From the sequence record MT833282.1: DNA of 64,000 nt; one strand, given 5' to 3'. A program made the position numbers and the translations under genes. Each line of letters starts with the position of its first letter. Positions within the stretch are counted from its first letter, which is position 1. Under the pieces are notes generated by a model. It saw only the letters and a program-made list of their open reading frames with translations. It had not been told where the DNA came from and did not search any database. This stretch comes from Escherichia coli phage vB_EcoM_Shy. Of this stretch, positions 3,313-3,454 are shown in pieces.

Positions 3313-3454
3313 AATTATCTTTGTAGATAAGTTATTAAGCTTCCCTGTGAGTATGCGACCACAAAGGTGAAAGGGTAGATTCTAGATTTAACCCGAAAAG
3401 ACACATCGCTACAGACCTTAAGCAAGTCTGGGTAGCTTATCTACAAAGATAATT
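3313..3454 (+). repeat. long-range inverted repeat enclosing about 100 nt (candidate structured RNA)
   Basis: attatctttgtagataag (3313-3330) is the reverse complement of cttatctacaaagataat (3437-3454); inner hairpin cagac-cttaagcaa-gtctg. Confidence 0.4.

Follow-up and report, generated by a model that had tools for sequence, protein, structure and literature searches.

What does a long, perfect inverted repeat do within the tRNA array of a Felix O1-like phage? Felix O1-like phages have wide use in typing and therapy, with more than 250 genomes sequenced, and we find that their 'tRNA region' holds a set of conserved, unannotated non-tRNA RNAs. Here, we analyse one such phage, Escherichia coli phage vB_EcoM_Shy (sequence record MT833282.1), in a stretch of 64,000 nucleotides, referred to throughout as the window. 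ARAGORN predicts 26 tRNAs on the + strand, and the repeat sits in the 451-nt gap between tRNA-Asp (2930-3007) and tRNA-Lys(UUU) (3459-3534). This gap matches 251 phage records, mostly of Felixounavirus, and at the repeat GenBank gives nothing or spurious small ORFs. We show that the repeat is the terminal helix (P1) of a discrete + strand structured RNA of about 146 nt (module C, 3313-3458), and that purifying selection acts on the core of this RNA (the long stem, two to three internal hairpins with conserved loops, and the hairpin P4) throughout the Felix O1-like phages.

The original prediction, made from the letters of the window, was an 18-bp perfect inverted repeat that was unlikely to occur by chance. 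The 18-mer lies at 3314-3331/3436-3453 and its arms are in fact one base longer: our own scan of the window gave perfect 19-nt arms at 3313-3331 and 3436-3454, a separate repeat search gave 22-nt arms at 95% (3313-3334/3433-3454), and P1 reaches 24 pairs once G-U is counted. Among repeats with a loop of up to 240 nt, this is the longest perfect one in the 64-kb window, the runner-up having arms of 13 nt. In first-order Markov randomisations of the window (n = 200) the longest arm averaged 12.2 nt with a maximum of 15, and none of the 200 reached 18 nt, which excludes chance as the origin of the 19-nt repeat and bears out the expectation. RNAfold, which had been proposed as a check, gives 3300-3460 a free energy of -45.6 kcal/mol (z = -3.4), and none of 200 shuffles is as stable. 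The parts of module C, with sequence types as defined below, and its 3' neighbour are as follows.

3313..3336, + strand: 5' arm of P1 (19 Watson-Crick pairs over 3313-3331, then U-G, U-A, A-U, U-G and U-G)
3337..3343, + strand: J1/2 strand AAGCUUC, the proposed pseudoknot partner of the P4 loop (GCUU 3339-3342 with AAGC 3420-3423)
3344..3367, + strand: P2 hairpin (UGUG 3346-3349 with CACA 3360-3363), conserved loop AGUAUGCGAC
3373..3394, + strand: P3 hairpin, apical GAUUCUAGAUU invariant in types I and II, its CUAG kept in type III
3412..3430, + strand: P4 hairpin CAGAC-CUUAAGCAA-GUCUG (CAGAC 3412-3416 with GUCUG 3426-3430), with covariation
3431..3454, + strand: 3' arm of P1, followed by UAAU (3455-3458) and the tRNA-Lys +1 position at 3459
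3459..3534, + strand: tRNA-Lys(UUU), 3' neighbour of module C (ARAGORN)

Homologous segments gathered from GenBank phages, IMG/VR and metagenomes yielded 26 unique variants from 59 loci, which fall into two sequence types. A pattern search of viral contigs gave 27 loci, and a pattern scan of metagenomes gave 62 matches, 6 of them real, which represent the same phage locus only. (The latter scan also returned an unrelated repeated element, ...GGATCATGATTGGTTGATTCTAGATTCTTGGCCGGTGGACAAACTGCCTACAAGCC..., in many contigs of moss-associated metagenomes, L120-L177.) Type I comprises the window and most Felixounavirus, and type II comprises DaR-2019b, Suspvirus and Mooglevirus; the two cannot be aligned by BLAST across module C, and P1 is present in all 26 variants. 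A covariance model (R1) built from these variants, with rough E-values due to a shortened calibration, was run on loci fetched via homologues of the neighbouring protein gene, a Ro60-like gene described below, and found type III in locus L182 (66.7 bits). Types IV to VII were found by inspection upstream of tRNA-Lys at loci where the neighbouring protein is 56-53% identical. Module C thereby comprises seven sequence types, of which types III-VII adjoin Ro60-like gene homologues of 63-53% identity. When the best long-range helix that ends just before tRNA-Lys was sought without bias, P1 came out at 21-27 pairs of differing sequence in all lineages but two: L188, where 15 pairs are contiguous and, by eye, about 22 form if one mismatch is allowed, and L187, which has a short closing stem of about 7 pairs.

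Covariation was measured on an alignment of types I-III (30 distinct rows), in which the interior was aligned between types partly by hand. Standard pairs fill 99.0% of the paired cells, as against 91.6% with shuffled partners and 28-49% with the partner slid by 1-3 columns, and 12 pairs have changed on both sides, as against 6.2 with shuffled partners (0 of 500 shuffles reach 12) and 0-2 with slid partners; the types represent few lineages, so that cell counts overstate the number of independent events. P1 alone has 22 modelled pairs, 8 of them with changes on both sides, and 99.1% of its cells are paired. The predicted stable stem-loop RNA is strongly supported by these data: compensatory and G-U-tolerant changes on the + strand keep the helix in all related lineages examined but L187, and the comparison with close relatives, where absence of the repeat with no compensatory changes would have spoken against it, instead found it kept with such changes.

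The second form offered by the original prediction, a protein-bound DNA palindrome, did not survive the same comparison. Across lineages P1 has 41 G-U and only 5 A-C oppositions, and single-base variants keep a wobble pair (A>G in L005, L009 and L144); the constraint is therefore on the + strand transcript and not on duplex DNA. The arms diverge while RNA pairing stays, and they carry mismatches in types II, III, IV, V and VII that a DNA-level element (a protein-binding site, cruciform, origin or recombination site) would not tolerate. Such an element would explain why the repeat has no mismatch over its 19 bp in this phage and why an exchanged cassette begins and ends at the arms: identity of the window to DaR-2019b is about 100% up to 3314, 35-90% over 3315-3454 and 85-95% after 3455, a drop so exactly placed that both arms must have been exchanged together as a cassette between phages. 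On balance we consider a DNA-level function highly improbable.

The layout of terminal inverted repeats of about 20 bp around some 100 bp is also that of a miniature transposable element. Each genome, however, has module C only once, always at the same syntenic site, with no direct repeat on its flanks (GGU, then AAUU...AAUU, then UAAU); there are 0 matches in 5,426 E. coli genomes, the metagenome pattern scan led back to the phage locus, and the arms covary rather than stay conserved. A mobile-element or chance origin of the repeat is accordingly very hard to credit.

Inside P1, the hairpins change their stems and keep their loops. The P2 stem, read from the sequences, is UGUG/CACA in type I, GGGG/CCCC in type III and CUAU/AUAG in type IV, with the loop GAGUAnGCn kept throughout; in type II variants the helix is weak and not established. 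The basal helix of P3 covaries as GGGU/ACCC (type I), UAGC/GCUA (type II) and GGGAC/GUCCC (L186), and type II has an additional lower P3 helix that covaries within the type (UUUCC/GGAAA, UUUCUU/AAGAAA, UCUCUU/AAGAGA). Two of the five modelled pairs of P4 have changes on both sides, and its stem appears as CAGAC/GUCUG, CAAACC/GGUUUG, CAGUC/GACUG, CUGUUC/GAACGG, AAAGUC/GACUUU and AGAGAC/GUCUCU. The most conserved sequence of module C is the 9-nt P4 loop, CUUWAGCAA. A 5-7-nt Watson-Crick complement of this loop lies right behind the 5' arm of P1 (molecule positions 21-28) in 10 of 11 variants, and the two partners covary (GCUUA:UAAGC, GCUAA:UUAGC, UUACUA:UAGUAA, UUGCUUA:UAAGCAA), with about three independent changes behind the pairing; the P4 loop thus probably forms a pseudoknot with the strand leaving P1. 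A nested pairing of gctac-cagac with gtctg-gtagc had also been predicted inside the repeat. Both strings are present (3408-3416, 3426-3436) and the inner cagac/gtctg stands as P4, while the outer gctac/gtagc helix was rejected: it loses to the extension of P1, and UUAU/GUAG in the window becomes CUGU/ACAG in type III, leaving CUAC partnerless.

Upstream of module C, the window contains a protein gene and several further RNA modules.

700..2115, + strand: Ro60-like protein gene (DUF2828 + DUF7788), from domain matches and predicted fold, 1.2 kb upstream of module C
2134..2254, + strand: two predicted sigma-70-like promoters (at 2134 and 2225), which would drive a unit containing module C
2446-2526: M1, Y-RNA-like module
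2613-2680: M2, Y-RNA-like module
3091-3169: M3, Y-RNA-like module
3177..3314, + strand: M4, a closing stem, GUUUACAGCAA and a permuted tRNA-like domain; 5' neighbour of module C

GenBank labels for the ORF at 700-2115 vary between hypothetical, vWFA and RNA-binding protein. An AlphaFold model from a 40-sequence alignment (pLDDT 87.7, pTM 0.88) has Ro60/TROVE structures as all ten of its best PDB matches over the full length (E = 2e-8 to 5e-6, TM 0.36-0.65); they include Xenopus and human Ro60, Deinococcus Rsr and a TROVE domain, with TM 0.53-0.65 apart from Rsr. A profile search against the sequences in PDB gives weak agreement with Ro60. The modelled protein folds as full-length Ro60 (TROVE ring plus vWA).

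M1-M4 are four paralogous 'stem + UUACAGCAA' modules, interspersed with tRNAs downstream of this gene, that have CAGAAGACC-N-UUACAGCAA ... GGUCUGG in common and an outer helix that covaries among paralogues (UGAC/GUCA, UUGC/GCAA, GAGC/GCUC, UUAC/GUAA). They resemble Y RNAs. M4 consists of a V hairpin (3215-3231), a T arm (3236-3252), a closed 7-bp acceptor hairpin (3253-3270) with compensatory changes in SUSP2, Sf14 and Michonne, and a D arm with GG (3273-3287), and its last two pairs overlap P1 of module C. This is the topology described for YrlA by Chen et al. 2014 (PMC4201824), i.e. a permuted tRNA mimic; the Rfam YrlA model gave no match to M4 even at E <= 10. P4 reads ACAG-ACC-CUUUA-GCAA-GGUCUG in L001, beside ACAGAAGACC-GUUUACAGCAA...GGUCUG in M4, and looks like a collapsed copy of its neighbours' stem-plus-motif core.

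No Rfam 15 family matches module C in searches of 3008-3458 at permissive E-values and of 1800-7800, the lone hit being CssrB (12.4 bits, E = 4.7); the YrlA (RF02553) and Y RNA (RF00019) models gave no match at E <= 10 on 3008-3458. As a positive control, the YrlA match in Klebsiella phage FBKp34 scored 39.6 bits at E = 3.5e-7, sub-threshold against a gathering score of 69. Like YrlA and Y RNAs (RF02553; PMC4201824), module C lies on the same strand as, and within 4 kb of, a Ro60-type gene, a long stem pairs its putative 5' and 3' ends around a structured interior, and the locus encodes several different small RNAs. Unlike them, it lacks tRNA-like arms (T arm, acceptor and D arm), lacks the GNCGAAN0-1G (or GGUCCGA) motif, and has a P1 stem that is perfect in this phage and not bulged. 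The GNCGAAN0-1G motif is absent from the window copy, and GCCGAAG was seen only in an internal loop of one type II variant (L013). Lacking tRNA-like arms, the GNCGAA motif and a score with the model, module C is not a member of YrlA. It also lacks the UUACAGCAA motif proper.

Two further classes were considered and rejected. Module C is not a permuted tRNA or tmRNA, the permuted tRNA-like domain belonging to M4, and it is not a small self-cleaving ribozyme such as a hammerhead: CUGUGAG...GAAA is suggestive, yet no Rfam ribozyme family matched.

The tRNA cluster of phage T4 also produces small, stable, non-tRNA RNAs (species 1 and 2, RNA C and D) that are co-transcribed and co-processed with tRNAs. 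These T4 RNAs are roughly 120-140 nt long, and module C is like them in size and in its tRNA setting; T4 is not known to have a Ro60-like gene. We found no description in the literature of small RNAs or of a transcriptome of Felix O1-like phages. We class module C, previously undescribed, with the structured small RNAs that are encoded alongside tRNAs and Y RNAs; it is the most elaborate of the unannotated RNAs in this region.

How would this RNA be made? Over 3008-3534 there is no promoter-like and no + strand terminator-like site (the only terminator-like match, 3254-3234, is on the - strand), and the longest ORF overlapping module C, which is not a coding sequence, has 36 aa; module C therefore lies within a polycistronic transcript of stable RNAs. 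After the promoter at 2225, the next sigma-70-like promoter is at 3708. P1 itself does not have the features of an intrinsic terminator: it is A-U rich with a 98-nt loop, a tRNA comes next, and there is no G+C-rich hairpin with a U tract. In the account we favour, at about even chances, module C is a stable trans-acting small RNA that is excised from the tRNA precursor and belongs to the system of the Ro60-like protein (700-2115) and M1-M4. Transcription would start at the promoters at 2134 and 2225 and yield a polycistronic tRNA/small-RNA precursor that contains it; RNase P cutting at the tRNA-Lys +1 position (3458/3459) would create the 3' end of module C, and nuclease trimming of M4, which ends ...GGUCUGGU, its 5' end. 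P1 would then clamp both ends, as in Y RNAs and other stable RNAs, to leave a nuclease-resistant body displaying the conserved loops.

The main alternative is that P1 is a processing stem only, that is, a target of RNase III or another endonuclease, or a folding insulator, that aids maturation of tRNA-Lys(UUU) and separates it from the upstream small RNAs, comparable to the long stems on either side of 16S and 23S rRNA, and that the interior has no function in trans. In size, a near-perfect duplex of 21-27 pairs corresponds to the classical substrate of RNase III. P1 is a nearly perfect, A-U-rich duplex of which length and not sequence is conserved in most lineages, its 24 predicted pairs in this phage span about two helical turns, as in an RNase III substrate, and module C always abuts tRNA-Lys. 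Similar long hairpins precede other tRNAs of the array: the one at 4596-4688, which contains UUACAGC, has about 29 pairs (z = -6.4) and lies directly before tRNA-Leu(UAG), and one at 3986-4027 forms 16 pairs directly before tRNA-Arg. A base of UCUUU/AAAGAU, then UAAU, then the tRNA is common to several A-U-rich hairpins of the array, these two included, and similar in module C, and in L182 the hairpin before tRNA-Leu reuses CUUUGUAGAU/AUCUACAAAG. With the RNase III processing stems of rrn operons (16S/23S flanks) and the R sites of T7, module C shares a long-range inverted repeat and a duplex of at least 20 bp around a structured RNA in a polycistronic stable-RNA transcript; it differs in that its interior has conserved loops and a probable pseudoknot, and for a mere cleavage stem a 100-nt interior with such loops, covarying hairpins and a pseudoknot would be needless. 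A role confined to processing is possible, and in our view less probable than a trans-acting RNA; it is compatible with the latter as a step in its biogenesis, and the two are not exclusive.

The position of module C is fixed relative to tRNA-Lys. It lies 0-18 nt upstream of a tRNA-Lys in every type, with the anticodon UUU in all but L187, where a tRNA-Lys(CUU) is interposed and is preceded by the C-like element. In type III, P1 ends exactly at the tRNA-Lys +1 position. The upstream neighbour, in turn, varies between M4 (in the window and L182) and tRNA-Ala (L184, L185, L188 and L189). From this fixed position, the work of the trans-acting RNA that we favour may concern tRNA-Lys(UUU).

One phage has lost the element. 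In Salmonella phage SP116 (L038, 899-1135), the T arms of M4 and tRNA-Lys have recombined with each other. This removed everything from the 3' half of M4 through module C to the 5' part of tRNA-Lys, and a hybrid of the 5' part of M4 and the 3' end of tRNA-Lys is left. Because SP116 lacks it, module C is not essential for plaque formation or propagation.

The same linkage would suit a structured 5' leader acting in cis on tRNA-Lys(UUU) by adjusting its amount, its timing or its folding; this tRNA is the target of several bacterial anticodon nucleases (PrrC, PARIS). Module C and tRNA-Lys(UUU) stay together while the upstream neighbour changes, P1 of type III adjoins the tRNA without a gap, and SP116 lost module C and the 5' part of the tRNA together. 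Set against this are the CUU anticodon behind the element in L187 and the P4 stem, which was considered as a mimic of the anticodon stem of tRNA-Lys and rejected, since the two stems do not covary and no mimicry is evident; moreover, the linkage may simply be synteny in one lineage. We regard a cis-acting leader as quite unlikely.

Small RNAs linked to Ro60-like genes also occur in distant phages. We collected 65 distant loci that carry a Ro60-like gene, including mycobacteriophages in which it is annotated 'Ro-like RNA binding protein'. Neither nhmmer nor the covariance model R1 found anything like module C among these 65 loci; what links module C to the Ro60-like protein is therefore their proximity in a single phage lineage. 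The motif ACAGCAA occurs there 159 times on the gene strand against 27 times on the other strand, with about 33 expected, and a 6-nt closing stem is found at 119 of the 159 sites as compared with 30% of control positions. The small RNAs adjoining Ro60-like DUF2828 genes cluster at sizes of about 55, 100-135 and 235 nt. Many unrelated phages share one family beside DUF2828 genes, made up of a terminal stem, (U)UACAGCAA after its 5' strand, a variable middle and the end ...CUG(U/G); its members include M1-M4 of the window, L032 5532-5814, L034 5440-5700 and L059-L119.

This family scores sub-threshold with Rfam RF01414 (best 29.6 bits, gathering 41.5 bits), the model of the dictyostelid Class I RNAs, which are about 60 nt long, start with AAG, have a short stem and an 11-nt motif, and end with CUGU (Kjellin et al. 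2021, PMC7919456). M1-M4, and P4 in reduced form, share with the Class I RNAs (RF01414; PMC7919456) a short terminal stem, ...UUACAGCAA after the 5' strand, a variable middle and the end ...CUG(U/G), and a length of about 55-60 nt is found in the modules of many phages as well; this grammar does not extend to module C as a whole. The likeness of M1-M4 to the Class I RNAs may be convergent.

A bolder and, we think, unlikely proposal is that module C represents a new pseudoknotted RNA class that forms one RNP system with the Ro60-like protein and the 'stem + UUACAGCAA' RNAs and acts on tRNA-Lys(UUU). If so, its roles could be quality control, repair, or protection of a tRNA targeted by host anticodon nucleases, and, by extension, the orphan dictyostelid Class I RNAs would be Y-RNA analogues of Ro paralogues of the DUF2828 type. 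The module C locus offers a concrete, genetically tractable system for asking what viral Ro60/Y-RNA particles do.

Several other features of these loci and of the tRNA array were recorded. 'Long tRNAs' of 111-121 nt occur at L032 6003-6113 (Klebsiella phage FBKp34), L108 about 3600-3720 and L035 5896-6138, where they are annotated as tRNA-Asp, tRNA-Ser or tRNA-OTHER; an extended stem with UUACAGCA(A) replaces the anticodon arm, and they would be non-permuted tRNA/Y-RNA hybrids. The array of the window contains two protein genes, 5446-6003 and 6390-7187 (DUF7338, DUF7217). Weak Rfam matches fall in its gaps 4249-4323 and 3839-4027, to a tRNA-Sec-like RNA (23 bits, E = 0.43) and to tmRNA (17.3 bits, E = 6e-4); the segment 4249-4323, which ends ...GGGGTTCAACTCCTCCGTCCCATGCCA, perhaps represents a degenerate tRNA, or an unusual one, that ARAGORN misses. 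Strongly structured spacers are also present at 3056-3093, 6248-6278 and 5096-5191, and the spacers of the array include hairpins with a UACG tetraloop as well as an element, about 90 nt long, that is closed by AGAGGUC/GACCUCU.
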